DNA from: Psammoneis japonica
Taxonomy: Eukaryota
Reading direction: 5' to 3'
NCBI GenBank assembly: GCA_008632985.1
Contig: QPGO01000371.1
Span: 1 to 37,083 of the forward strand
DNA length: 37,083 bases
Under the pieces are notes generated by a model. The model was not told the DNA's origin and searched no databases. It was given only the letters and a program-made list of their open reading frames with translations. Below, piece by piece: positions 1-37,083 of this stretch (the first letter of the stretch is position 1; each line of letters starts with the position of its first letter). Both the position numbers and the translations under genes were made by a program.

Positions 1-804
1 GCGCGGCTCTGCTTGCGCTCGCCGTCAAGAACCAACATTCTTGCCAATGTTGGCAACACAAGCAACAGGTAATACCAAATACGATGGTGCCATTGGCGAC
101 AATATTTCAATCAGGGTGGCACAGTCTAGTGACAGAGCAGCAACCATTCGCCATCGTTTGGGATCCGCATCGAATCGAGCACTACCCGCTTTGCCCATGT
201 GCGATGCAAACAAAACACCACCGAGCTGACCAATTCCATCCTTCAATACCCAATTGAGTGCTCCCGCCATGATGGAAGCTTGTTGCGCGGAACCAACGAC
301 GCCTACCGCCAATAACAAAGTCTGAGTCGACAGCACCATTGCTGCGCTACCGCAGACGGAAGCACAAAAGCTATAAATCACGAATCGATCGTATCCAGCG
401 GCAACACTGTTGGGATAGCCCGCTGGTAAGAAATGCGCAACAACGTTTTCCTTGACGAATACGGAGATTTCCTCTGAACGCGACCTTGTCGAATTCTTTT
501 CTAAAGATTCTTCAGGTAATGCGGTTTTCGATACAGATTTTCTCCAGGAAGAACGAGATTCATTCGACACGTACAACGTTGCAACCTTTCGGTTCACTCC
601 TTGACTGTTTGAAGCTGGAAACTCCCAAACCTCTGTCGGTTTTCGAACAGCGCTGCTATAAGACTGTGCCCTGATCGCATGCAGAAACAATCGTGCTCTA
701 AATCTACAATGTCGCGGACACAACAAAGGCACAAACTTCTGACCGCAATAACCAATTCCACATTTGATCCACATTTTACAGATCTTTGGATCTAGCTTGA
801 ACAT
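1..804 (-). CDS. RUS1/DUF647 (root UVB sensitive 1 family) membrane protein, 3' part outside the window
   Basis: Family motifs FLPAGYPNSV, LSTQTLLLAVG, ALNWVLKDGIGQLG, FDADPKRWR and ANIGKNVG are present. The apparent stop at 25-27 is a 1-nt frameshift: one extra base in the AA at 30-31 restores GFLTASASRAA. Exact start is uncertain. Confidence 0.85.
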
Positions 805-893
805 TCCTCAAATAGACATCAAGCAAGAAAGTGTTTCATGATGTCGGGATGCGTGATGAGTGACGCCACCCATTGCTTTTTGCATTTTGCATA

Positions 894-1211
894 CTACAAA
901 TTGCAAAACAATTGCGCGATACACGTGCCCGAAGGTCGAATATCGTTGCCCGAAGCAACATTCTTCCTTCGCGCAGATGTCCATTCTACATAGTATATGG
1001 TATTGAAAATCTCATTGTAGTCGCATGAGTCGTTGAAGTAATTTCATCAATGACCTCTGTGGTACTGTGCTACGTGATCTACACAAATCGGACATTCTCG
1101 AATGCTGGTATATTTTCTACGGTCTCTACGTGCGCGAAGCTCGAATTTCGTGCCCGAAGCAACAATCACCCTTCGGGCACGTGTATCGCGCAATTGTTCA
1201 GCAATTCGTAG
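894..1211. mobile_element. MITE (non-autonomous Tc1/mariner-like), ~318 bp, ~42-bp TIRs, TA target-site duplication
   Basis: Left end CTACAAATTGCAAAACAATTGCGCGATACACGTGCCCGAAGG is the reverse complement of right end CCTTCGGGCACGTGTATCGCGCAATTGTTCAGCAATTCGTAG with 3 mismatches. TA flanks both ends (892-893, 1212-1213). No credible ORF inside. Confidence 0.75.
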
Positions 1212-1615
1212 TACCGTATTTCGGCTGCGCCACGTTCCGGTCGTATCCGCGACCAGATGACACGTCATCTATTTGAACAATTTTCAACGGAAAATATTTT
1301 ACATAGAGCCATGATATATTCAACATATTTAGTATATATGATAAAATACTCGTATCCTTAAATAACTCCACCACACGCACCACCAAAAATTGCATCTTCA
1401 ACATGCCTGAACATAACGCACGCCAATTCTCACGTCGTGTTTTGTGTTTGGAGGGCGTTGAAATAGTTCGAGGTTCGCAATCAACGATTCGATGACTTCC
1501 ATTTTCTGTGCTGATACAGTAGGAAGAACCAAAGTGAAAGCATTGAGTATCTTTTATACTCGCACACAATATCGTTTCTTTGAGTGGTATATAAGGAGAA
1601 TCTTACGGTCACAAA

Positions 1616-3802
1616 ATGGGAACAACCGGTGATCAAGACGAAAAGAAGTGGGGCTCTCGTGCGAATGTTGATCGTGCAAGGTATCAATCGAACTCGCGTC
1701 CTGTTTCTCGTAGGAACAACGCTGACGATGGCATACAAGAACTTCACTCTCCATCACTTCATCACTATAATCGAAGCTCCGCTCGCTCTGGTGGGAGATT
1801 CGGCGAACGCGAAGATGACGTTAGACCCTTAACTCATGCTGCCTCTGCGAGACGGGTAATACATCATGAAACAGATGAAACTATGGACGACTTAGTCGCA
1901 GAGAAAATGAACATACTAAACAGGAACGGGCGACGATCCTCAAATCACGAAGGAATGGAGACAATGGACGACCTCGTCGCAGAGAAAATGGATATGATGC
2001 ACAATTCGGGTACAGAACGGGGAGACCCCAAAAGGTTTGACCTGGGTAACGATTCGAGAACAAGCATGCAAAAGACACACGTGTCCACTCCGTTACATGC
2101 CGTCGCAAGTGACGTCGTTCTTACGTCCGGAACGATGCAAGCAAATGGTAGTGGAGGTGGCTCCATGATGGGCAGCCCTGACGAAACAAAGAAGAGACGA
2201 TTCCATAGCGCCGGCGGCACCAATCGTTCTTCGACCATGAGTGAGCGCGACAACGCTGCTAGGGAGAAACAAGGCCCTCGAATGTCAGTCACCAACAGAG
2301 ACATGGATTACGATGAGGAGGAAGGTACAATAGGAGATGACCCGCAACGCACAGGCGCTTATTTCATTAGCGGTACAGGTGATGTTGTCACTCGTCAACG
2401 TGGTGTTCTAACGTCCCAACCAAGTGAGAACGACCACACAGTGGTGACCAAAAGAGCGCCCACAGCGGAAGTGACGCCTTTGGATAGCTCCAACGCATCA
2501 AAGAGTACTGCAGATGGAAAAGATGTGCCGTGGTACTGCAGTCGAAAGTTTAAATTGATTGCACTGATTGCGCTCATTGTTGGTGGTGCAGTTGGTGCTG
2601 CCGTTGGAATCACGTCGGGTGGCGGTGGTGGAGTCGACGAAGACGATGGAAACGGCGACCCTCCGGTGGATCCAGTTGATCCCGAAGAATCTGCTCTCGA
2701 AATAAGAAGAACGGCCATTCGCGCGTCCCTTCTTCCGGTATCTGGCGCAGATGCGCTGGATGATCAAGGCTCTCCCCAGAACCTGGCCATGAATTGGCTT
2801 GTTTACAACGACACCTTAACTCCAGTGGGAAAGGATATCAGCGAGGAAGACTTGAGCAAGTTGATTCGACGATATTCACTCGCTGTGGTGTATTTTGCTA
2901 CTGGGGGAGAGTCGTGGTTTAGAACCGACAACTGGTTTGAATGTCGTTGAGGAGGAGTGCGAATGGAGCACATGTCGTGTGAAGCCGGTGAAATAGTGTC
3001 ATTTGATACGGGCACCATAGATAACAATGTGGCAGGAGCTATACCTCCAGAGATAGGGCAGCTCTCGTTTCTGCGTCAGTTGCTGTTGCCCAACAATCAG
3101 GTTGCGAGCTTGCCGTCCGAGATGGGGGATCTCAACAACTTGACCTCGTTAGATCTAAAGTTCAACGCCTTGGCAGGTCCTTTCCCTTCTGTGATCTACG
3201 AGTTGACATCACTAACAAAGCTCATATTGGATGAGAATGGGCTTAATGGAACGATTTCAACGGCGATTGCTGCTCTTTCGGACCTTGATTTCCTATCTCT
3301 CCCTAGAAATAGTCTCACGGGAGTGTTGACTGTCGAGTTTCAGTTCCTCTCGGCTCTCACTACGCTGAACATTTTCAAAAACTCATTTCAGGGCTCAATA
3401 AACGAAGTGTTTCGGGGTTTGACCAACCTAGACTTGTTACGAGCCGACAGTAACGAGTTGTCTGGTACCATATCAACAGAAATCGGCATGTTCACGAATT
3501 TAGGCGAGTTGAATCTTGGTGATAACAGAATTGAAAACTCGACGATACCGACGGAAATAGGAGAGCTCACAAAGTTGGTTGGTCTATTTTTGTTTCGAAA
3601 CAACATTGTTGGTACAATTCCGTCCGAGATGGGGAGGTTAAGAAGGCTTCAGACTCTGTTCATTGAGGATACAAACCTTGTTGGCTCCATTCCCTCAGAG
3701 TTATGCACTGTGTTTGAAACAGTTCCCGATTTCCAGTTGCGACTTTTCCCTTGCACTGTCGAGTGCAATTGCAGCGTCTGCGATCCGGAGTGCCAAGCAT
3801 GA
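1616..3802 (+). CDS. Type-II single-pass membrane leucine-rich-repeat protein, copy 1 (interrupted by two compensating 1-nt indels)
   Basis: Disordered N-terminus with GAYF motif, TM helix LIALIALIVGGAVGAAVGI, SPQNLAMNWL/RYSLAVVYFATGGESW cap, plant-type LRRs (LxLxxNxLxGxIPxEIG) and Cys-rich end. ORFs 1616-2950 and 2957-3802 share a frame. Alignment to copy 2 shows +1 T at 2936-2938 and -1 G at 2965-2966, which restores NWLNVVEEECEWEHMSC. Confidence 0.85.
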
Positions 3803-4334
3803 GTTTGCACGAGGAAGGACCGAGTTGTATGTATATGTTATTTGAAAGCATTCGGATGAATTCATCAGTTCATACTGTACACCTTTACTTACTCCATGAC
3901 TTTTAAATGACGTGGATGTGAGAAAAGGGATGTGCCGGAGGCGTGCTGTCCCATGGTCGGTTGTCCGCTACCAAACCTTCGGAAGCGACGTGCGGACGCA
4001 ACCAATTTTCTGTTTAACGGTGAAAACACTAGTTCATAAAGTAGTATTTTCTTTTGATGTCAATCCTCTTTTCCAGGTACTGCTCATCGATTGTACTGTA
4101 GGGCCCTCTTTTAGGCTACACCAAGCTGTGCTGTGTGCTTGAAAGGATTCATTTCGGTACAACGGTGTGTCTGAAATATGAAAGGGTTCGCCACAACAGG
4201 CGTTTCATCCACCAACATTCCAAATACAAATAGATGTAGCCAGTATTGTCTATAAAACATGAGAATGAACCATAGTTTCAGCCTACTATGCTCTCTAGTA
4301 AAGAGCGTACTCATTTGGCAACTCGCGTCTCGCA

Positions 4335-4818
4335 TCATGACGACTTGGCGTCTTCGCCAGCATGATCGTTGATGCCCATAATATACAGAGGAATAGCGAT
4401 TAGCGTCACGAATGGTACATTGAACGCAGCATGTTACACTTCACCCGTCAGTAAACCAAAGCCCGTATCCAAAACAAACCACACTGCTGTGGAGGTTCCC
4501 AGTGATCGACGCGCCAGGGCTCGAATCGAACCGTCGTTGCTTGCTGCAAGACGCACCACGAACCACATGAGAGTCATCCAGCCGACAATGATGGAACCTA
4601 GCACTCCAAATGCAAACATAGCATAATCAACTCCGTCTGGGTCAAGATTGCGGGTGTTGGGGCCGAAACGAAGTGCATCAAACAGCGTCATGGCAAAGAC
4701 GCGGCCCGATAGCACCATTCCAAGACCGTAGACCGTGACAATTGCGATTTTATACCGCACGGAGAAAGGCGTGTGCTCTTAGATACTGGCGTGATGGTGA
4801 AAATTGTTTGGGTGGCAT
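4335..4818 (-). pseudogene. Small 4-TM membrane protein with a frameshift and an internal stop
   Basis: ATG at 4818 gives MPPKQFSPSRQYLRAHAFLRAV, with a frameshift near 4750 into IAIVTVYGLGMVL...FGVLGSIIVGWM...WFVLDTGF. After an in-frame TAA at 4434-4436 the frame continues as hydrophobic HAAFNVPFVTLIAIPLYIM to TGA at 4335. Confidence 0.55.
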
Positions 4819-8631: not shown

Positions 8632-9171
8632 ATGACAACCAGTGTGAAATTAGGCTTTGGTACGTAATCGACGTGATATTCGCCACTGGGAAAACGAGAG
8701 GATGGAGTGCGGCGACGAATGGTGTCGTGTGTGTGATGCAATTGTTCCACTTTCCTTTCGACACAGCTGAAGCTATTCGAATGCGGTTGGAAACGAGCGT
8801 TGTTTTGTATCACGAGCTGCTTCAAGGTATACTTACCCATTTTTTTCTCTAACTCTCTTTTTCTTTATACAGAGGCTTTTGACGATGACTTCAAGGGGGC
8901 TCCCACCGGTGCGGACAAGGTGCACGTTCGTGTTCAGCAGCGAAACGGGCGCAAGTGTATTACGACGGTTGCGGGACTGGCGGATGATTTGGACATTAAA
9001 AGAATCTGCAAAGCCTTCAAGAAGAACTTTAATTGCAACGGTGCCGTTCAAAAGGATGAAGAGGGTGGCGAAGTCATTCAGCTTTCTGGTGATCAGCGTA
9101 CCGATGTGAAGGAGTTTCTGGTGGATCAAGAAATTTGCCACGCTGAGCACATTGTGCTTCACGGATTTTAA
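8632..9171 (+). CDS. SUI1: Translation initiation factor eIF1/SUI1; exons 8632-8659 and 8873-9171
   Basis: VHVRVQQRNGRKCITTVAGL, KAFKKNFNCNGAV, VIQLSGDQR and terminal HGF are eIF1 hallmarks. The intron GTACGT (8660)...CTAAC...TACAG (8872) joins MTTSVKLGF-E-AFDDD in frame. Confidence 0.95.
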
Positions 9172-25020: not shown

Positions 25021-25136
25021 ATCAGTCGTGCTTCTTCGGCACGAGTCGGGGCACTCCATAAAAATGGAATTGTGCAAAGAATCTCATCAAAACAACAAGA
25101 TATTCCTGTGAAACTATAAGGGAAGACGATTCGATC

Positions 25137-26998
25137 ATGAATGCAATGCCAGAAAACACAGACGACGATCATGAAGAAGGAGGGGATCCGAACCCCCATA
25201 CAATGACAAAATCCGAACGAGTCGGTTGTACGGTTGGAGGTGTTGCCACGGCAGCCGCAGGCGCAGCGGCGATTTATGTCACCGCGCCGATTGTCCTACC
25301 AGCGTTTGGAGCGTTGGCAGCCGGTAGTGCCACCGCTTCTGCTGTCGCCACAGCTGGTGGGTACGTGGCTGGAGCTGCCGGGGTCGGAGCGGGGGCTACT
25401 TCGGCTATTTTTCCTTGGGTTGCATCCCGTGAGAATCAAACCTGGAGCAATGTAGGTCAAGCTGCTGGTGTCGGCGCCACGGTAGGAGTGGTAGTATCTG
25501 CGTTGCCGTTGGCTGTCATGGCAGCGGCAGGAGCAGGGGCCGAGAACAATTCTTCTTCTCAGGGTGGCTCGCAGTCATCATCGGGTAATGATTCCTCTTC
25601 GACGTCTAATCAAAATCAGTCCAACGAGGAAGTTGACGAGCTGAAGGGGTCAACAGGGCAAAATTCTGCTGACAGCAAGGAGAAGAAAAAGAAGGATGAA
25701 GCGGCGAAGAATCCGGCTACTTGCGCCGCTGGGAATAAAGAACGGAAAACTCCTGCAAATCATGTGGGCGTAGATGGAACGAACTTGAACATGACCCGAA
25801 ACTATTCCAAAGGTCCACCTCCTGCAGCGCCGAAATCACAATCTGCAGACCCCTCAAATGTCAAGCCGCGAGGACCACAATATCACTGCCGGGATGAATC
25901 CCAAGAGCAGAAGGCAAAGAGGCCTCACGGTCACGGACAAAACCCTCGAGCTGCACCTGAGCAGCCAGCAAGCGCACCCGGTGGAACTCAAACCCCAGGA
26001 AATCATCATCATCAGCAACAACAACAACAAGAAGAAACCTCAAAAACTTGGGGCGCCAGCGCCGGAACTCTAAGCACCGTCGGTACAACACCGCAAAACA
26101 GAACAGATGGATATCCAAACGGAAAACGCAACAACACCAAGAATCCGACCGCCAGTGCCAGCACACCAAGTACTACCGGTGGTACGTCACGAAAAGGAGG
26201 AACAAATGGAAACGACAAGAATCCCAAGAATCACTTTTTCAAACGGGGACCACAGGAACCAAATCATCGCTTTTCCCGTACCGATAACGACAACAAGAAT
26301 ATGTCGACATGGGATGATACGATGCAGATGGTTGACGATGTCGAAGATGTCGTTGGTGAAGGTTTCGTCAAAGTCGATGTCAATGGTGAGGTGTACATCG
26401 ACCCACAACGTCTTGGTGAGATGACCCCGGAGGAGAAAAGTATCTTGGATGACATCAGAGCCAGAACAAACCGGCGCCGCACGATCCGTTCGAAAGGCAG
26501 ATGGATGATCCAGCAGGATATGACCGCGGACATTTCACTGCTGACGATGAGGATGGTTCTGAAGTAACACCAAGCTTCAACAGAGAAGACGACCACAAGA
26601 ATGGGTCGATTTCCATGAATATTGTAAGAGATATCGAGAATAAAAAGCGGATGCACAATCCTTTCCAACTAACAAATGGCCTATTCGGCCATCAACATTA
26701 CACCAACGACGATGCGGATTCGGAACCACCGACAAGTTTCGGTCGACAAGACGAAAATTCATTGCCTGGCTTCATGAGCCCAGATGATTTTCATGCCTAT
26801 GTTGATGGAATGAACAGTGATCAGCTGGACTTCATCAGACGCCAAATCCATGAATCGATGGGCAGATTGTGGACCCAACTGCAACAAGAGATTCGAGAAG
26901 GTGCCACGGCTAGTGAGATCAACTTACCCTCCCCATTGGACCCGTCCTTCTTTGAATTTCGCCCGCGACCGACGTACTCGGCAACCTATTCTCGCTAA
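25137..26998 (+). CDS. Gly/Ala-zipper membrane region + disordered linker + putative DRGH (His-Me, EndA/NucA-like) nuclease domain; frameshift at ~26470
   Basis: ORF 25137-26567 overlaps ORF 26501-26998. One extra A in the run at 26468-26470 fuses them (IRARTKPAPHDPFERQMDDPAGYDRGHFTAD). The motif spacing GYDRGH..A....GS...N....M...IEN..R...Y......P.SF resembles non-specific endonucleases. Confidence 0.55.
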
Positions 26999-27614
26999 CA
27001 TAACATTAACGATGATTGAAAACTCCACGTCACTAACTCGAGCGCTAATTATTCCAATGCCCTGCTGGAACTAACAAAGACACACACTTGAACACCAGAT
27101 GGTTACTTTGATTTTCACGTGGCTATGACCTCGACATTCATTGGCACAAATTGTGATCACTTCAACCCATTCCCTGCCCCTCTTGGCAAGAGCCCCCATT
27201 CTTTCACTTGGAGGGGCCAGACTTGACTGGATCTGATTTAATTGGAGTTCCATGGATGAAAAGCAGCATGGTGTGAGTGTTCATGAGTTTTGAGCCACCT
27301 GAAGCCACAACGCACACACCACAGTGATCGCACCAATGCAACTTGCTTGGCAGCATTGTCATCATGGTCACCAGATTCCTGGGCATCCAAATGGGAGAAA
27401 AATTGGTGCACTGGATGCTTGATCAAGGAGCATCTCCGTCAATTGTCCCACCTGGACAGGGCCTTGGCACAGAGGTGCTTTGTGGCTGACAATCAAGCTG
27501 TTGCTTCTCTGTGATGTCACATGTGGTCAAAATCCAACTGGCACAATCCGAGTCTGATGTCAAACCCTCAGGTGCACCTGTCTTGTCCTTTTGCTCCCAT
27601 GCACAATGATGCAG

Positions 27615-28023
27615 ATGAGAGCAGTGGTTGGTGTCATTGTGCGTGATTGTGGTGGTGGGTTCTTTTGGTTTTGGTTGTGCTGTCACCCACCTTTTCAGTT
27701 CCTTTTCTGTGCAAAGAGCTGCAAGAAGCCTGCTCTCAGTTGCCACAATTGTCAAACCCTTGCTGCAATTTTGTTCACCAGACACAAGCACTTGTTGCAA
27801 GTGCAGCATTTCAAAAAAGTGTGACCAACTTGGTTGGTGGATTGTCCACTGTGCTTTCTGGAAGCAATGTTGTCAAGTTCTTGCACAGCTCAATGTGGTG
27901 TGTTGCAGATGAGTCACATTGTTCCTTTGCTCCCACACAGGCCCTGAGGAATGTTGAGCAGATGTGGTGTGATCCAGCATTGCACCTGCTTCAAGCCAGG
28001 AGATGATTGTGATCTGCACTTGC
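27615..28023 (+). repeat. Degenerate repeat copy A (homologous to 31305-31889)
   Basis: Shared blocks TTTGGTTGTGCTGTCACCCACCTTTTCAG, CTGCTCTCAGTTGCCACAATTGT, TCAAGTTCTTGCACAGCTCAATGTGG and CCCTGAGGAATGTTGAGCAG. It lacks 187 bp present in copy B. Confidence 0.85.
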
Positions 28024-28140
28024 CTGTCCATGTGCATGCACTGTTGTTCTTCTCTGCCCACTGCTGGGTTTTTACTCTTGTGAGCTTGTTCTGCTTGCTC
28101 ATTGCCTCTGCTGGGCATGTGGCGACACATGCTGCACTTC

Positions 28141-28660
28141 CTTTGTCCAGCCATTGCCTGTTTCTGATTCCTGCCAGCCAGCTGGCTGCTTTGTCCATTG
28201 CATCCCAGTTGACATTGCAGAAGCTTTCACTTGAAATTGTTTCTGGCAGACCCAGTGCTGGCAGATGAGTTTGGTGCCACGAAGCTTTGTCAATGTGTCC
28301 CTGCTAAAACCAGCAACATTTTGTCCTCTGTCCTGTGCTGTGGAGCTGCAGGGAGGGGGTGGTCTGTGCTTTTGCCACAGATTGCATGTGGTGATGTGTG
28401 CCACACTCTCTTTGTCCAGCCGTTGCCTGTTTCTGATTCCCGCCAGCCAGCTGGCTGGCTGCTTGTCCATTGCATTCCAGCTGATGTTGCAGAAGCTTTC
28501 ACTTGAAATTGTTTCTGGCAGACCCAGCACTGGCAGATGAGTTTGGTGCCATGAAGCTTTGTCAATGTGTCCCTGCCAAAACCAGCAACATTTTGTCCTC
28601 TGTCCTGTGCTGTGGAGCTTTGGGGAGGGGGGTGGTCTGTGCTTTTGCCCCACAGATTGT
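28141..28660. repeat. Tandem duplication, period ~270 bp (28141-28385 / 28410-28660)
   Basis: Near-identical units containing TTGCAGAAGCTTTCACTTGAAATTGTTTCTGGCAGACCCAG and AAAACCAGCAACATTTTGTCCTCTGTCCTGTGCTGTGGAGCT. Confidence 0.9.
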
Positions 28661-31304
28661 CCATTTGTGTCATGTTGAGCAGCATCAAAATCAATTGAGC
28701 AGGGCTCCATGTGAGTTTGTTCTTGGCGGTGCTCTCAAAGTGTTTTGGCAGTGCTCTCAAAGTTTCAAAGTTGTTGGAGTAATTGTGGCTGTTGTGTCTG
28801 AGGGCTGGGCAACTTTGTTGTTGTTTTGCTTCACCAAATGTCTTCCACCAAGCATGTGGTCACTCACAGTCCTGAAATCTCTGCTCTGCATGATTGATGC
28901 TGCATCTCCTGGGTGGCAGGTCACATTGTTCTCTCTTTAAAAGAGCGCCCTTGTCACAAATGCTGGGATTTTCCCAGCACTTCTTGTTTTGCTCAACCAG
29001 TGCCACTGGCCATGCCCTTTGTGTGAAGATCCTCAATGCACCACTTGTGGCTGGGCAGATGCTGCTGTGTTCATTGCATCAGGGGTGCAAGAGGTGGCTC
29101 TGCCTGCAGCTTCTTTCTCACCAGCATCAGCCCTGGGTGCTGGAGCACACCCTTCCTTGTGACAGGCCCAGGTCCATTGCACATGCTGTGTGATGGCCTG
29201 CTCCAAATCAAATGTGCCTGCAAATTGCTGGTCTGAATGATGACCATGCACTTTTGTTGTGGGTGCCATTGGTGCAATCAATTTTTGAAGAGAGATGAGC
29301 AGAATCAGGGCAACTTCCTCTTGCTGGTCTTCTTGACTGTCCATGGGTCAAGAAGCTCAGGGCCCTTGTCTCCAGATCCTCCAATCTGATGTTGAGAGTT
29401 TGCTCTGTGCTGTTGAGTGGTGGAAGGACAAGAGGTGTCACACATGTGTCTCCCTTGCCATTCCATGCAACTGCTGGTGCAAGCATTTTCTATCACCCAT
29501 CATGACATCAGCTGGCATGCTCACTCAGAGACATTTGTTGCACAGGCCAAGAGTTTGGCACCCGCTCCAAAAAAAAAAATCCTCTCTGCAATTTTTTCAG
29601 AATTCAGAAGGAGTGCACCATTGTCCAGGCAATGACTTTTGTGGGTTTGTGGCTTGCCCTCTCTTTGACATGGGTGCTGTTCTCCAACATGAACCACCGC
29701 CAATGTTTGGCCCATGAATGGGTTGCAAGTGCTCCAAAGATGTTGTGTGGGTTTGTCCAAGAATGTCCCTCCACTTTGGTTTCTGGTTTGTGTTTCTTCA
29801 ACAGTTCCCAGAAGAACTTCTCCTGTGGTTGTTTGCTGTTTTTGTTTGACCAAGGCTTTGACATGTTTCCTGGACAGGACAAACTCGCTCCACAGACCAA
29901 ATCCCTGAAATCCCTTTTGCTCCCAAGCACAGATCTCAGAAATGCCCTGCTGCATGGCCCTGCCATGATCAAGCCTTGCCTGACAACCAGTGCCTTGATG
30001 TGCCTGCCCCAGCTACTTGGAGATGAGACTCTGGGGCAAGAAAAGGGCAGCCCATTGCCCCCTGCATGCACTGAGTCTGGGAGAGCCAGGCACCCAATGG
30101 GTGTGAGCAATTGCAACATTTTGCTTCTGAGTTGTCATTGTGCGTAATTGGGAAGATTGTTTTTTGGACAATGCAGGTGCCTGGAATTTGCTGCAAACCA
30201 ATGAACAGATGAAATGCCGCCAGTGCAATGACAATTTTGCTGCCAGAAACAAAACTTTCACGCACATCCAGCACAAAAAAAAAAATCCAATTTTAGGTGC
30301 TGTTGCACCTTTGCCCAGCAACACCAGTGCCGGCTGACCCACAACTCCAGTGCACCCTGCAAGGGGTGCAGCAGAAGATCGTGCGATCAGTTGGTCAACG
30401 TGCCGCTTTGCAGCAATGCACACCAGAGACAAAAGGTCAAGGGGAAATTGCACCAGAAGGAGATCATTGCTTTCTTTTGGAGAGGATTTAATGCACCCAA
30501 ACTGCCACAGCAAAGGACAATCATGTCAAGCAGAGAATTCAAAGCCAGCGCAAACTCTGAGAGAAAATCTTTGCCTCTGAGGGAGAATCTTGTCTTCAAC
30601 AAAGACTGACTGAATTTCACAATTGTGCAGACCAGAACAACAGCATGCAGTTCACTGCTCAGAACTGTGATCTTGGCAGGCCAGCAAGCAGAAAAAGGGA
30701 TGTTCGGGACTTGCAAGGATGAAATGGGAAGTCTTGGCAATGTGATGAGAAGGTCGCCAGAAGAAATGTCATTCTCACTTAGAATCGACACTGAATCTTG
30801 CGCACAAAAGCCAATCCATGCAGCAAATGGACGGTCGTCAGGTGATGCCAATGGTTTGTCCATGCAAACACCCGCAGGTGCCACAACAGGGACAGTGCTT
30901 TCACCACATGAGGTGAAGAACTTGAGCAGCCAGTGGAAGCAAAAGAAATTGTTGGGGGCTTTTGGGCATGGAAGAAGGAAGTTGATCGCATCGGAGACGC
31001 AATGACAGCCGGTGCACATTTCTGAAGTGCGCAGAATTTGCACTGGATTCTGTGTAGAAATTGCACTGAATCTGCAAAAAAAAATGCCAAATAAAACAAC
31101 AAGCACGCGAACCACAAGGTGTCGACACCAGTCATTTTCCACTAAAAATTGTTGCACATCATGGAGATGAAAGGGTGCGCCAATGGCGGAAGATTCCAAA
31201 AGGTTGAAAAGGGCGACATCAGCACAAGAGCACACGCAGAAACACATGCAGGGGCTGCCAGTGGGTGCTTGCACAGAAAAGCATGCACATCCAGCACAAA
31301 GATG

Positions 31305-32500
31305 TGGTGAGGGCAGTGGTTGTCATGGTGTGCAGTGGCGGTGGGTTCTTCTAGCTTTGGTTGTGCTGTCACCCACCTTTTCAGCAGAACCTCCATTTCT
31401 GCACAAAGAGCTGCTCTCAGTTGCCACAATTGTGATTCCCTCACTGCAACTTTGTTCACCGGACACAAGCACTTGCAAGTGTGGCATTTCAAAAAAGTGT
31501 GAGGACCAACTTGGTTGGTGGATCCTCCACTCTGCCCTCTGGAGCTAATGTGATCAAGTTCTTGCACAGCTCAATGTGGCGGTGCACTGCAAATGAGCCA
31601 CATTGTTCCTTTGCCACCACAGACCCTGAGGAATGTTGAGCAGCTGCACAGTCCAGCATTGCACCTGGTTCAAGCCAGTCTTCCAAGAGGAAAGCCACTG
31701 AAAGTCCTCATCTTGAACATTTGACCATTCCCTTGCAATGCAGCCTTCAAGAGCAGGAGCTGATCCCATTGATGACATGTTGAGAAAGAACAGCTCCCTT
31801 TGCAGCAGCGGGTTGGTGATGGATTGGCTCTGCAGCTCAGTGCCACAATGGGTCCTCCAGGCCAGGAGATGGTTGTGATCTGCACTTGCTGCTGGTTGAT
31901 GTGCATGTGCTCCTGTGGTTCTTCTCCAGAGCCACCAAGTGACTGTCCTTTGACCTTTGAAGCACACACACTTGCTCTCTGGAGATTTCACAAGGAACCC
32001 CCAAACAGCTGGCTCTTTTGGAAACTTTTGAGACCTTGAAGCCAGTCTTCTGATTGGCACCCCAATGCAGAAAAGCCAAAGACAGCGATTGAAGATCATG
32101 TCGTGCGACACCATGTGAAAGAGGCGGGCAGCATTGTGACACCAGTTCGAACAAAGAGGGTGTCTGCTCATCTGTGCATGAGCCCAATGATTTCTTGTCA
32201 AGATCAAGGTCAAGTTCGACAATGCTTCTTGCACTGGGGCCACAGCTGGCATGCGGCAGAAGTTCCTGCCCGGGCTAGAGTCGTCTGCAGCCCTGTTGGA
32301 ACCATGAGAGCCGAGTCTACGAGCGCCATCACAGTTGCGTCCAGGTGAAACAGTGAACATGATCCAAACACACCAGGCGAACGTCACGACAAACACGAGT
32401 GGATTTTCGAGTTTGTTCATCACGAGGTGACTGCAAGCAAAGGGCGACCCGCTGATGACGGGAGCAAGAAAAGGAGTTCCACAAAGCTCTGTTCCACTGG
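31305..32500 (+). repeat. Longer degenerate repeat/gene relic copy B; 5' part matches 27615-28023, 3' part matches 23457-23790
   Basis: Direct alignment by eye to both other copies. The plus strand shows broken protein-like frames (WVLLALVVLSPTFS..., LALWRFHKEPPNSWLFWKLL) that I cannot assign to a family. Confidence 0.8.
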
Positions 32501-33222
32501 GAGTTGCAGGAAAAAACAATTGTTGCACTGCTGCTTGATGGCACGGATGATGCGACACGTGGCAGCTTTTTTTGCAGCATTGTTTGTCTGCCGCATTGCC
32601 CCGCAAACAACATCATCATCTTGTCTGCCAGTTGTCATGCTGGGTGTGTCTGTCGTGGAAACGAACAGAGGGCTGTTTCGTGCTTTGATTTTTGTGCTGA
32701 GAATCTTGAAATTTGCCATGCGAGAGGAAAAGTGAGTGCTTTTGGTTGAAGAGAAATGGAGTCAACCAACCACAAGCTTCAATGGGTGTGAGACAAGAGT
32801 GTGGTTTTGAAGCTCGGCATCGGCATCTCTGTTGCATCCCCATCATCTGCGCGCGGAATCATCAGAAAAAAAAATGCATGCGCGCACCGCGCTGAGGCAC
32901 TGCCGGCATCTGTCTGCACCCCGCAAGGCTGACCACAAAAAAGCGCGGGAAGCACACATCACAATTGCGTCATCGGTGGGTGCATTTTCATCCCCGGGCA
33001 CGCTGCCGCCACCCGCCCATGCATCACGGAGATGCAGTCCGGCGCATGCTGTGGGCCCCATGACAGTGCTGCAGGGCCCTGCTGTGGGTCCACCTGTGGC
33101 AGGTGGGGAGGAGGGGTTCACTTTTGCTCGCGATTGACTCGCGAGGCGTTGCATCGACAATGAGATCAAGGAACATTCACGGCAACATCATCTTGGCGAC
33201 AACATGCTTTCTGCTGTTGATT

Positions 33223-34119
33223 TTAGTTGTCAAAATGATCCACATCAAATGGTGAGTGACCCATCATGAGGGCCAACTGTGTGATGTTGGCCACGGCATG
33301 AAACACATGGCAATGTGTTTCCTTCGCGTGGCAGCATCTTTTGTTGAGCATTCCGAAACGCTTGAACCATCCATTGACAGCCTCATGCCTTGCCCTTGCT
33401 GTTGTTTTCGTGGCCTCGTCTGCATTTCTTAGGCCGGATGGAGTCGAGCTGCACTGGCTCCCGTTGCTGCGGCCACCGTCGGCCAGACACATCTCGCCGT
33501 CTTCAAGCTCTTCAATGATCCATTCATGAGCAATGTTCAGATCCGGCAACCCAGCTGGGTGCGGCCCATTGACCCAAACAATCCACCCTGTCTGAATGCA
33601 TGTTCCAATTTCATGCCGCAGCCCAGCACCGTGGAATTTGTGGGAGAACCACATTGGATCGAATGGTGATGGCTCGTAGATTCTGAAATCAGTGCCGTCG
33701 AGTGTCACCAAACATCTGCTGCCATTGTCATCAATGAAGCGGTCTTCCCAGTGAATCTAAGAACAAGGTGTCAGTCCATTTGTTTCACACACATGAGCAA
33801 TGTCTGGAATGGTGCGCGCCAAATTCAACTGTCCAACAAGTTGAATTCTGACCCAAACCCATTTTCTCAGCGTGTCTTCATGGATTTTATTACAGATGCC
33901 AGCAACGACTGTCTCAGATTCATGCAATTTGAGAAAGCAAAGGGTGTGGAGCAGGTGAATGGGCAAAAAACCTTGTGGCATTTTCCCGTCGTCAATGAGA
34001 AGCCCCCACAACTCAGATGCCACTTCTTCTGGGGTGCAGAAGCATGCTGCAGGTGACCCTTTTGGCTTCTGAATGATCGTCTGTGCCAAGCACTCTGTGG
34101 CCTCTTTGGGCAGTCTCAT
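33223..34119 (-). mobile_element. PIF/Harbinger DDE transposase pseudogene (2 exons; intron 33757-33819)
   Basis: Exon 1 has HLLHTLCFLKLHESE...EDTLRKWVW. Exon 2 has IHWEDRF...CLVTLDGTDFRI.EP...WFSHKF.GAGLR[H]EIG.CIQTGWIVWVNGP...LADGG...ARARHEAVNG.FKRFG, matching the Harbinger/DDE_Tnp_4 pattern. Acceptor TTCTTAG is intact and the donor reads GCGCGC. Confidence 0.88.
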
Positions 34120-35051
34120 GATTGGCAATTGGCAGTGTGCCACAGTGTGTCACTTTAGCGTTTGTGCCAGTCTCTGCCACTGGCAGCTGCTCTCTGCTCT
34201 GCAGCAGCTGGCTGCTCTAGAGAGTGGCACAGCAGTTGTTTGACATTTGACAATTGTGTTTTGTCGTCTTCACGCAGTTGGGGTTCTCATTAGAAGAGGC
34301 CTTTGGTGAGATTCCGTCGTGTTTGAAGAAAATACGAAAAAAATGCGATTCGGGTGTGGTTTCCGAATGGTGACTTTGGGACGTTCGCAATGGGCAACTT
34401 TGGGCGTCGTTTTGTCAACCGGAACACGGTAGAATGACCATTCCAACGCGTGCTCTTAGCTCAACTAACACAGCAGTTTACATGCAACATGTGACACAGA
34501 ATTTTAAAACCACAATCCATGGTTGGTGGTGCATTAAAAAAGCATTCTCATTCTACAAATCGAAATGAAATCGCCTTTTCACAGACGAAAAGCGCACGGA
34601 AATGTGCCAATGAAAAGCCAAAATGAACATCAGGAGCTAGTTTGCCATCAGTGCCATCACAAACACACACCAAAGCTTGGGATTCAGCCACTCATTCTTC
34701 AGTTGAGATGGTCCAAAGTCATCGTTCTGGAGCTGAAAATCATTTTGGGTGTGATTTGGGAACAATTTTTGTGTGGTCTTGGAATGTTTTTCGTGTGGTC
34801 TTGAGGGAATCTTCGTTGTCAAGAGGCCCTTTCTCAATGTTGGCGGTTGGTGTTTTCTCAAATCTCATTTTGGCGGTTGGAATTTATTCAAATTTGAAAA
34901 GAGCGTCACGCGGATGGTGGTGAGGTAAGTTTGTTGTGACCCATTCAAAAATGGGGTTCTCATTGCTGCCCGTCAACGCGAATGCTGATCTTGACGACTC
35001 TCGACTGTGCACCATCAATCCTCTCACAAAAAAGAGAAAACCAAAGAAGCC

Positions 35052-36233
35052 ATGCCCAAACTCAACCAACGAACCAAATCGGTTCTTGACACTGAGGCTG
35101 CCGGCCCCCTTCGAGCAGTGTGGCGCAAGGGGTCCGCCGACTGCAAACTCTTGAAGGAGATGCTGATGGATGGCAGGGCAAGCGCTGGGAGCGACGCCAA
35201 AAGAGATCCAGCAGATGCGCGCAGAGTTCATGCGCTGTCCACTGGACAAGTTCCGCACTGGCTTGCACAGGCTCAAAGACGAAACCGGGTTCAATCTTCG
35301 TCGAACGATGAACGACAGCAATGAGAACCCTGACGGTGAGTTTGATTTTCACTGCATTCGCACATGCACGTGAAATAAATGTGAGTGACATCACTGTGTT
35401 GCCGATGCGTGCATTTTCATTTGACCACACCGCGCGGTGTTCTTTTTTTTCATCTGGCCACAGACACCGACGACAGCGACGAAGAGCTGTTCTCGGGTGG
35501 CCTTGACAGCACTCGTCGGACGGCATCAGCTCCAGCTCCTGCAAACAACAACGATGCAGCTGCTGTCATGAATGGAGCTGGTGTTGCTTCTGTGATGGAG
35601 GCACGTGGTGGTGGGCAAGGAGGTTCTTGGAAAAGCTTCAAGCCCATGGTTTTGCAAGCTGCTTGCAAGGACTCTGTCACCAAGACCAATCATGTCGTGG
35701 TTGTTGTGGCTCCATCTGGTGTTTGCACCACGGACCTTTCTGGCATCCAGCTGTCTGTTGTGAGCAATGGGTGGATGCTCAGTTGCATTTTCCAGTGGCC
35801 ACAGCACTCCATGGACATGGATGCTCTTCACGCAGTTCTCCTTGATGAAGCCACTGCCCAAGGGGGAAACCACGGTGGCGATGATGAACTCCGTGACATC
35901 TACAAGCGCCTTGAAGCTCTTTCAGATGAGCTGTCTTCAATGAGGCAGTCTGACTCTGAGGTCCTGTCTTCCACAGCCCTCGTGCCCTTGCCAATCCAGG
36001 TCTCTAGGAAAATCAACAAGGTTCATTTGTTGGGTGGTCGCGATGGGTCCAGGATCATTTGTGTGGACCTCAAGTCGGAAGATTCGACATGCTGCGCTGT
36101 GGAGAATCCAAAAGTCAAGTTGATTGATGCCACAGGCGATGGTGTTGGACTCATTGGCTGCAATTGGGAGCTGGACGCCAGCGGACAGGATGCACATGCA
36201 TTTGACACAATGCACAGATTAGGACATTTGTGA
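35052..36233 (+). mobile_element. Probable second (DNA-binding/accessory) ORF of the Harbinger element, degenerate; intron 35336-35463
   Basis: Divergent from the transposase, as is common for two-ORF Harbingers. WRKGS...LLKEML.DG.[fs ~35188].TPKEI...RAEF...PLDKFRTGL.RLK is a helical motif. The GTGAGT...CACAG intron splices in frame to DTDDSDEE. The true stop is uncertain because TA stops are eroded. Confidence 0.55.
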
Positions 36234-36389
36234 TTGTCAGCAACTGATTGGCACAACAAAACATTCTTTCAACAACAGTCTCCACAGCTGCCACTGTGGC
36301 AGCAGCAGGGCCTGCTCTAGCCAGCAGAGTAGACTGCAGTTTGACTCGGCGATGAACTCGGCAGTGCGAGCACAGCAGTGCTCACGTCT

Positions 36390-37083
36390 TTGGCTTTTTA
36401 AACAGAAGATTAAGGGAGCCCATGTAGAGCGGAAGGAACAGCAGAGGGAGGCACAGAGGTGGCTGTAGAGACGGCAGAGAAGAAGGGTCGAAGGACGCAA
36501 GACGAAGGGCGTTTTGAGGAAGGTGTGGGTGAGGAGGGAGCAGGGAGAGAGGAAGTGAATCAGAGGATGTGCGTAGAAAGGTGAAGAACGACGTTGCAGC
36601 CAAGAGTTTGGGTGGCCCACTGGGATGGGGTGGCTGTGCGGCAGGTGCTCCCAAAGCGATCGGCAGACAGGCGATGCCATGCGAAGTCAGCAGAGGGAAG
36701 GATTGCAGACGGAGACGACAAAGCGTAGAGGAAGGTGGAGCAGGAGGCATCGGAGTGACGAAAGTCAGAGGAGAGGACCAGGGTGGCTTGGGCTGAGAGC
36801 AGACGGAGGAGGATGTAGAGCCAAAGAGCAAGCGGTGAGCAAAGTGGCCGAGACCACCAAGGTGATCTACAGTGAAGGGGAGCAGGAAGATGCCATTGTT
36901 GTCAAGCGAAGAAAACAACAAGGGATCCATCGGCAGAGGAAGTGAGAGGGGCCAAGAAACTTCAATCTCGCGCTCGAGTGTGTGCCTCAGTTGAGGCAGG
37001 AGAAGAGGGGGGCAGGCAGACCTGGAGGAGGGCGGAGGAAGCTTAGGGACGGCAACGTCCACTGCAATGTAGTGATGGTGGGA
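36390..37083 (-). mobile_element. 3' end of a degenerate non-LTR retrotransposon with restriction-like endonuclease (CRE/Ambal-like)
   Basis: DVAV...LLPFTVDHLGGLGHFAHRLLFG matches the C-terminal RLE pattern (D-V-x-V...P-F-x-V-D/E-x-x-G-x-L-G). The coding strand is pyrimidine-rich, frameshifted, and has a short A-run near 36395-36399. Confidence 0.55.

Follow-up and report, generated by a model that had tools for sequence, protein, structure and literature searches.

How a transposase gene can keep an unbroken reading frame and yet lose nearly every one of its tyrosines is the question raised by positions 33223 to 34119, minus strand, of a 37,083-nucleotide stretch from the diatom Psammoneis japonica (GenBank assembly GCA_008632985.1, contig QPGO01000371.1, positions 1 to 37,083; hereafter the window). 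A preliminary description of this locus had proposed a Harbinger transposase that was inactivated by systematic changes of Tyr to His or Cys and by destruction of a splice donor, both through mutation of the dinucleotide TA. The results presented here argue with good confidence for a relic two-exon transposase of the DDE_Tnp_4 family that lies within at least 9.8 kb of DNA hypermutated specifically at TpA, at the DNA level and on both strands, presumably by a targeted enzyme.

Two open reading frames (ORFs) on the minus strand, 33757–34149 and 33223–33756, were found to share one frame with one TAG between them and to form a frameshift-free, two-exon gene (33223..34119) of the DDE_Tnp_4, PIF/Harbinger type. 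Exon 1 (33820..34119), which extended from an ATG at 34119 to the residues ...QLNL, was colinear with exon 1 of loci L003, L045, L049 and others; a predicted phase 0 intron of 63 nucleotides (33757..33819) contained the in-frame TAG; and exon 2 (33223..33756), identified by Pfam match and alignment, carried the DDE_Tnp_4 domain and the gene's own TAA stop, which was intact. Exon 2 matched positions 1–156 of the 158 in the Pfam profile DDE_Tnp_4 (PF13359) with an E value of 2e-6 and a score of 28.0 bits (cut-off 24.8), and the relative L003 scored 30.3 bits. With the 308-residue product as query, the TAG being read through as X, a word-indexed protein search yielded 539 candidates, 226 of which reached E <= 0.001, while an exhaustive search gave 2657 matches at that threshold, 63 of them at E <= 1e-30. 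The best match, P0002, was 71% identical over exon 2, and the named relatives were diatom proteins, for example from Seminavis robusta. Residues D151, D224 and E256 (window codons GAC, GAC and GAG) occupied invariant alignment columns and presumably form the catalytic D-D-E triad of this fold. As judged from its sequence, the product is thus a DDE_Tnp_4 transposase with its D-D-E residues intact. The Harbinger label holds for the domain, which exceeded the gathering score, and does not extend to terminal inverted repeats, a target-site duplication or a Myb-like partner, none of which was shown.

In an alignment of 269 protein sequences (the window product and 268 homologs), the single Tyr previously noted in exon 2 proved to be the only one in the entire 308-residue product (Y158, TAC at 33676–33678), compared with an average Tyr content of 3.86% among homologs. 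His and Cys accounted for 6.5% and 4.9% of the window product versus 3.8% and 2.7% of homologs, respectively. In five columns, 40% or more of the homologs had Tyr, and the window residues at these columns were H76, F168, H179, R227 and H305; the four with Tyr in at least 79% read His, His, Arg and His. Thus, Tyr was present in 71 of 90 homologs at residue 76 (motif FLKLH, window codon CAT at 33922–33924), in 252 of 266 (95%) at residue 179 (LRHE, CAT), in 247 of 264 (94%) at residue 227 (ADGGR, CGC) and in 175 of 209 at residue 305 (VDHFD, CAT). Among the 40 closest homologs, Tyr was present in 26 at residue 221 (EMCLAD, window codon TGT) and in 15, with Phe in the other 25, at residue 197 (GPHP, CAC). 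The nine aligned Tyr residues of P0002 corresponded in the window to Tyr (one), His (three), Cys (one), Arg (one), Phe (one), Glu (one) and Ala (one).

The motifs LRHE, FLKLH, GPHP, MCLAD and ADGGR cited in the preliminary description were all present in the window protein, and its proposal that the conserved protein supplies the polarity of the change was upheld, since family-wide Tyr (TAY) appeared in the window as CAY, TGY or CGC. The motif KRCCH was a less certain example of Tyr loss. Position 272 (window codon TGC) fell in an ambiguous column with Phe in 30 and Tyr in 10 of the 40 closest homologs, and position 273 (TGC), where Arg was conserved in 97%, had undergone a CpG-type rather than a TA change. 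Similarly, the word systematic applied to the Tyr columns and not to all differences. When the 40 closest unmutated relatives were summarized as a 50% consensus, the window departed from it at 35 positions, 6 of which were reachable by TA changes only and 4 by CpG changes only, the rest representing ordinary divergence.

Replacement of Tyr at the four most conserved columns was rare in the family. The number of these columns that read His, Cys or Arg was zero in 250 of the 268 homologs, one in 9, two in 4, three in 4 and four in 1. The 9 homologs with such residues at two or more columns (P0049, P0125, P0129, P0135, P0143, P0192, P0250, P0257 and P0262) contained only 0–3 Tyr each and came from environmental contigs in metagenome and sequencing-run assemblies (JGI/IMG, ENA, Logan). 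These Tyr-poor proteins are victims of the same process and not a functional variant.

The specificity of this process was evident from a comparison in which DNA of 15 relatives whose TA content was normal was threaded onto the window codons. The share of sites with a given dinucleotide in a relative that the target kept was scored for the window and likewise, as a control, for each relative. Of 393 sites with TA in a relative, the window kept TA at 4 (1.0%), whereas controls kept TA at 18.4–30.9% (mean 26.1%; window z = -6.5), and |z| for the other 15 dinucleotides was at most 1.8. Conservation of CG was 16.8% in the window and 19.3% on average in controls, which rules out a single process for the loss of both TA and CG in the gene; mean conservation of the remaining 14 dinucleotides was 0.341 in the window and 0.323–0.374 in controls. 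Where relatives carried TA, the window most often carried CA (106), TG (67), TT (51), TC (35), GA (26), AA (22) or CG (20). Together, CA and TG made up 44% of outcomes as opposed to 16–28% in controls. CG made up 5.1% compared with 0–5.5% in controls; this was no clear enrichment, and a general double hit that turns TA into CG was rejected.

No dinucleotide other than TA was thus depleted relative to controls, and TA was replaced mainly by CA and TG. Since other dinucleotides were at control levels and no frameshift was present, the copy shows no excess of general decay. For the same reasons, namely dinucleotide conservation like that between intact relatives and an unbroken frame, the TA-specific rate would have been far higher than the background rate. 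On the coding strand, CA as well as TG outcomes were seen, and block-wide ratios of CA and TG were similar, which indicates that both strands were affected.

The same signature was noted at the intron. The 63 nucleotides between ...QLNL and IHWEDR... appear to be an intron conserved in the family. In 74 of 80 related loci of environmental origin, the codon corresponding to I132 came directly after an AG, the acceptor CTTAG was retained in the window, and four loci (L019, L035, L042 and L062) were intronless exactly at the predicted junction (L019: ..LDL|IKW), either because they are transcript-derived or through true intron loss, as may be the case. Donors were compared among 18 loci with an exon 1 match that reached the boundary, two locus pairs being the same element in two assemblies. 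The homologous site was occupied by GT in 13 of the 18 (GTAAGT in 7, GTACGT in 4 and GTGAGT in 2), and the other 5 had GTRAGT 3–9 nucleotides downstream; all donors recovered were therefore GT and none was GC. The two GTGAGT donors were those of L045 and L049, where others carried GTAAGT. As the preliminary description had held, the donor was destroyed, GCGCGC (33814–33819; GCGCGCA in extended form) being present in place of the GTAAGT or GTACGT(A) of relatives. Compared with GTACGTA of L015, all three window differences lay within TpA, the first TA reading CG and the second CA, and the ancestral donor was probably GTACGTA-like. Intact family members that combine His or Cys at the Tyr positions with a GC donor would have spoken against inactivation by TA change, and none was found, the bearers of His, Cys or Arg being the Tyr-poor proteins.

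Occurrence of the signature beyond this assembly was evident from the 80 environmental loci, three pairs of which (L021/L022, L023/L028 and L026/L027) each represent the same element in two assemblies. Observed/expected ratios (o/e) of TA over whole loci ranged from 0.34 to 0.99. Ratios within the gene, compared with fuller flanks, were 0.16 for L077, 0.19 for L020, L021 and L022, 0.25 for L004 and L025 and 0.29 for L049, and these loci together with L045 showed the signature, low gene TA combined with His, Cys or Arg in place of conserved Tyr, in graded form. Among 64 loci with at least three informative columns, gene TA o/e was inversely correlated with the share of conserved Tyr columns that read His, Cys or Arg (Spearman rho -0.48, p = 6e-5); the fraction of conserved Tyr cells that were mutated was 10 of 27 in loci with gene TA o/e below 0.4 versus 8 of 198 in loci above this value. 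L077, only 36% identical to the window, carried His, His and Arg at the same three columns and kept TA at 1.4% of relative-TA sites. The signature thus recurs in independent environmental relatives.

The gene was found to lie in a TA-erased block (27240..37083) of at least 9.8 kb that runs to the end of the window. TA o/e was 0.57 in positions 1–26,900 (CG 1.05, CA 1.12, TG 1.14), 0.07 in 27,000–32,000 (CG 0.17, CA 1.80, TG 1.81) and 0.13 in 32,000–37,083 (CG 0.65, CA 1.61, TG 1.48). The last closely spaced TA was at 27124 and the next were at 27239 and 28073, which places the border between 27124 and 27239, directly past the last host ORFs (25062–26567 and 26453–26998). From 27,251 on, TA o/e in 250-bp windows was 0.00–0.21 except at 34,251–34,500 (0.34) and 36,251–36,500 (0.50), and non-genic flanks within the block were as TA-poor as the gene. 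Over the first 27 kb, TA o/e of host genes was 0.35–1.01 per kb window and intergenic DNA retained its TAs. The loss of CG had a different distribution. From 27.25 to 32.25 kb CG was nearly erased along with TA, and from 32.25 kb CG o/e was about 0.65. The two losses are therefore separable, the gene having suffered TA loss only and the 27.25–32.25 kb region both, although a single process for both losses in 27–32 kb is possible.

Erasure of TA also altered the coding appearance of the block. TAA and TAG (both strands) occurred at 8.0 per kb in 27251–37083 versus 32.4 per kb outside, and TGA was little changed (36.9 versus 43.7 per kb). ORFs of at least 70 amino acids numbered 7.9 per kb in the block versus 5.2 outside, with long ORFs in all six frames; the long ORFs are a side effect of the disappearance of stop codons. 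One example of such a ghost ORF is 31554–32612 (minus strand, 352 amino acids). Because changes of TA to CA or TG are unable to make stops, an open frame in this DNA is uninformative as to function. A Pfam scan of the 77 other block ORFs of at least 70 amino acids revealed no family above cut-off, so that the transposase is the sole polarity marker in the block.

The window was further compared with public sequencing run X1, in which a fraction of 0.70 of sampled words from 27,200–37,083 was present. The DNA was found in runs of a single study, and no RNA run containing it was listed. One X1 contig with a word depth of about 60 spanned the block border (25185–28244, 3.06 kb) with 4 differing letters, and two others of this depth lay inside the block (28590–30311 with 1 difference and 31244–32525 with 2). 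Word depth was that of single-copy DNA at 27.06–30.1 kb and 31.4–32.3 kb, while summed word depth reached 650–4500 over 30.1–31.4 kb and 33.2–37.1 kb, which indicates that the latter regions are multi-copy. Over the gene itself summed word depth was 650–1240, suggestive of numerous copies of the element. X1 contigs differed from the window at 387 transition and 88 transversion places. Among the 40 differences listed of these 475, 31 were in the block, and 24 of the 31 were transitions in pyrimidine-purine (YpR) dinucleotides (TG or CA to or from CG or TA). A separate X1 contig joined 34477 to 35319, skipping 841 bases, and so represents another copy without this segment.

Taken together, these observations establish TA specificity, direction, action on both strands, regional confinement and recurrence in relatives. 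They would be accounted for if the element was inserted first and was then mutated along with at least 9.8 kb of repeat-rich surroundings by a process that acts on both strands of DNA, converting TpA to CpA or TpG and occasionally to CpG while sparing other dinucleotides. By such a process Tyr codons (TAY) would become codons for His, Cys or Arg, including those of two near-invariant tyrosines (LRYE and ADGGY), and a GTACGTA-like donor would become GCGCGCA; the process being unable to make stops, a fully open ghost reading frame would persist. The earlier claim of inactivation stands in so far as conserved tyrosines and the donor GT are lost. That the copy is dead, and that the TA changes are what killed it, we infer from these losses, although the D-D-E triad and the TAA stop are intact.

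The most likely agent would be a targeted enzyme that deaminates adenine in TpA. A candidate is a TpA-preferring DNA adenine deaminase directed at foreign or silenced DNA, like the one put forward for the chlorarachniophyte Bigelowiella natans. A preprint on that species (Mettrop et al., bioRxiv 10.64898/2026.01.13.699255) reports that two integrated viral regions received 231 of the 302 nuclear mutations seen in mutation-accumulation lines. All but one of the 231 were transitions from A to G or from T to C, and each of these 230 was on TpA. The rate was about 1000 times background, in some lines only; Pfams for DDE endonuclease and reverse transcriptase were overrepresented among TpA-depleted coding sequences; and an ADAT2-like adenine deaminase was proposed. 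A more far-reaching proposal is that diatoms and their uncultured relatives possess an enzyme-driven defence that targets chromatin or foreign DNA, deaminates adenine in TpA on either strand, is the same as that of Bigelowiella and is old in the SAR supergroup, in effect a reverse of fungal repeat-induced point mutation (RIP). Transposons would be killed by it through loss of Tyr and of splice donors, and, as stops would never arise, gene callers would go on to predict proteins from the open ghost ORFs left behind. This proposal is tentative, its probability falling a little short of an even bet.

The CG outcomes (Y227 to CGC and donor GTA to GCG) require a separate account. The preliminary description had read them as two hits at one TA, and this had to be abandoned, as successive TpA-specific hits are impossible once the first has abolished TpA on both strands. 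Such outcomes could have arisen in one episode if an I:T mismatch was repaired in favor of the strand with inosine, through relaxed specificity of the process, or by ordinary later transition.

Several points weigh against TpA-directed hypermutation by a targeted enzyme. No enzyme, de novo event or DNA modification was observed for the block, and R227 and the donor GCG are unexplained by sequential TpA-specific hits. Near-erasure of CG in 27.25–32.25 kb means that TA loss was not the sole process there, and the single-copy depth of 27.06–30.1 kb makes repeat-induced targeting less than obvious. Moreover, the 15 reference relatives in the dinucleotide comparison are interrelated and were pooled, so the site counts are non-independent; some environmental loci duplicate one element; and X1 is probably the sample behind the assembly, hence non-independent and weak support by itself.

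Some of these points would suit a passive bias, that is, slow TpA loss in silent, unrepaired chromatin (e.g., by a TpA photoproduct or error-prone repair) with no targeted enzyme. The TA-free state of single-copy 27.06–30.1 kb would fit a chromatin-domain effect, CpG decay in the block is as expected of old methylated DNA, and no enzyme was identified. However, loss of TA from the gene had reached about 96%, with the remaining 15 dinucleotides, including CG, conserved at the level seen between intact relatives and the frame intact; intergenic DNA of the first 27 kb retained its TAs; and the signature in B. natans arose far above background and in some lines only. A passive bias is for these reasons unlikely, although it is the most serious of the alternatives. 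Miscalling of modified heterochromatin bases, whereby TA was read as CA or TG, is very improbable. The stretch was found in X1 only, and X1 shares a sample with two runs and may be the source of the assembly; on the other hand, X1 contigs at a depth of about 60 matched 3.06, 1.7 and 1.3 kb almost letter for letter, and unrelated environmental assemblies, among them those that yielded the nine Tyr-poor homologs, carry the same signature in relatives.

A functional sublineage with His, Cys or Arg as natural residues at the Tyr positions and a GC-AG intron would agree with the open reading frame and intact D-D-E triad, and GC-AG introns occur in eukaryotes. Against this, the residues corresponding to Y179 and Y227 are Tyr in nearly all homologs, those homologs with two or more replacements are nearly devoid of Tyr and, where DNA is available, show low gene TA, and the open frame carries no information for the reason given above; such a sublineage is even less probable than miscalling. 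Equally hard to credit is A-to-I editing of a transcript by an ADAR-like enzyme with later copying into DNA. The preference of ADAR for a 5' U would match the TA motif, as the B. natans preprint discusses (bioRxiv 10.64898/2026.01.13.699255), but the element is a DNA transposon with its intron still present, both T-to-C and A-to-G outcomes were seen on one strand and non-genic flanks of the block were hit equally.

Compared with B. natans, so far as the preprint describes it, the diatom block was similar in that changes were confined to TpA, yielded TpG or CpA and ran in the direction A:T to G:C, in that foreign or silent regions were hit while their flanks stayed normal, a target present in single copy being possible, and in that the depleted gene here is a DDE transposase while TpA-depleted coding sequences there were enriched for the DDE-endonuclease Pfam. 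It differed in host, a diatom (stramenopile) as opposed to a rhizarian, in target, a DNA transposon in a repeat block as opposed to viral DNA, and in that part of the block was also CpG-erased. Depletion was near-saturated here (TA o/e 0.07–0.13; 250-bp windows 0.00–0.50, most of them at or below 0.2) compared with 0.45 for the region of nucleocytoplasmic large DNA virus origin in B. natans, and the process is deduced here from fossils whereas in B. natans it was seen to arise in mutation-accumulation lines.

The block resembled the products of fungal RIP in context-specific transitions within repeated or mobile DNA, sharp regional limits and inactivated transposases. In contrast with RIP, which changes C to T mostly in CpA and makes TpA and stops, TpA was destroyed here and stops could not be made, and homology dependence was not evident, part of the block being single-copy by depth. 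Fungal RIP as the cause was rejected, TA o/e of 0.07–0.13 with CA and TG o/e of 1.5–1.8 being the opposite pattern. Decay of CpG by deamination of 5-methylcytosine shares with the block an excess of CA and TG and would match the low CG ratio of 27.25–32.25 kb; by the CG-path test, up to four substitutions in the transposase (R208H, D229N, R261W and R273C) are plausibly due to it. It differs in that TA was lost here while CG in the gene was kept near the control mean. According to a published account, diatom transposable elements are under DNMT5a-dependent methylation and many diatoms have DNMT4, which is related to fungal RID and is of unknown function (PMC9998398). Methylation of this kind fits CpG decay in part of the block and leaves TA loss unexplained.

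With regard to the architecture of the element, a second ORF in two frames (35167–35373 and 35385–36230; 35167..36230 overall, plus strand), divergently oriented from the transposase, was recognized from tblastx conservation with L002 (322–1352, minus) and, more weakly, L031 (117–1217, minus); its matches were colinear with a region about 1–1.8 kb upstream of the L002 transposase. Neither this ORF nor its relatives contained a Myb/SANT or other Pfam family above cut-off. An inverted-repeat search of 27000–37083 returned 13 short pairs, none of which convincingly bracketed the two ORFs, and neither terminal inverted repeats nor a target-site duplication was identified; duplications that contain TA would be hard to see because they would have been mutated too. 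The element thus resembles PIF/Harbinger elements in its DDE_Tnp_4 nuclease domain, intact D-D-E triad and possession of a second ORF, and differs in that no Myb/SANT domain was found in that ORF and neither terminal inverted repeats nor a 3-bp (TWA) target duplication were identified. The motif GGGTTCTCAT occurred exactly three times, at 34281, 34954 and 35321 (inverted), and its total count at no more than one mismatch was reached by 14 of 100 shuffles; a 25-nucleotide inverted repeat was formed by 34954–34978 and 35306–35330.

Elsewhere in the block, a direct repeat (27632–28023 and 31321–31889) consisted of copies about 3.68 kb apart and about 87% alike with indels. At many of the differences between the copies, a CA in one stood next to a TG in the other within a single YpR site, which would fit a hit on one ancestral TA or CG on different strands in each copy. 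The copies were considered as long terminal repeats, and no reverse transcriptase or integrase was found between them in the Pfam scan of block ORFs. The remaining 1–27 kb of the window was gene-dense, with LRR, MFS, allantoicase and SUI1 genes among others; the allantoicase was closest to pennate-diatom proteins (at most 66% identity), in agreement with a diatom host, of pennate type, such as the preliminary description had assumed. The SUI1/eIF1 gene (8633–9168, plus strand; Pfam E 2e-24) had a short first exon, and the GTACGT donor attributed to its intron by the preliminary description was found at 8660, directly after the first codons. All 11 GTACGT sites of the window fell before 27 kb.

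In full-text literature searches, TpA hypermutation was not found reported for any diatom or other stramenopile, although the B. natans supplements, which lay outside the search, may list further taxa or gene families; the preprint itself is silent on diatoms, stramenopiles, CpG and tyrosine (bioRxiv 10.64898/2026.01.13.699255). TpA hypermutation has thus been precedented since that 2026 preprint, and what is new here is the diatom host, the near-saturation, the DNA transposon as target and the environmental relatives that share the signature. The transposase supplies direction, specificity and relative speed, which are beyond the reach of base composition alone, and shows the route by which elements are disabled, namely through conserved tyrosines and GTA-containing splice donors. 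Hypermutated relics that lose TAA and TAG and gain no stops stay open and so pollute protein catalogues, as in the case of 9 Tyr-poor entries among 268 homologs. Since diatoms are transformable and can be edited by CRISPR, candidate deaminases are directly testable. If the reading favored here is true, P. japonica would provide the second case of TpA-directed hypermutation, much closer to saturation than the first and in an unrelated major lineage of phytoplankton, which would suggest that the process is widespread among marine protists.

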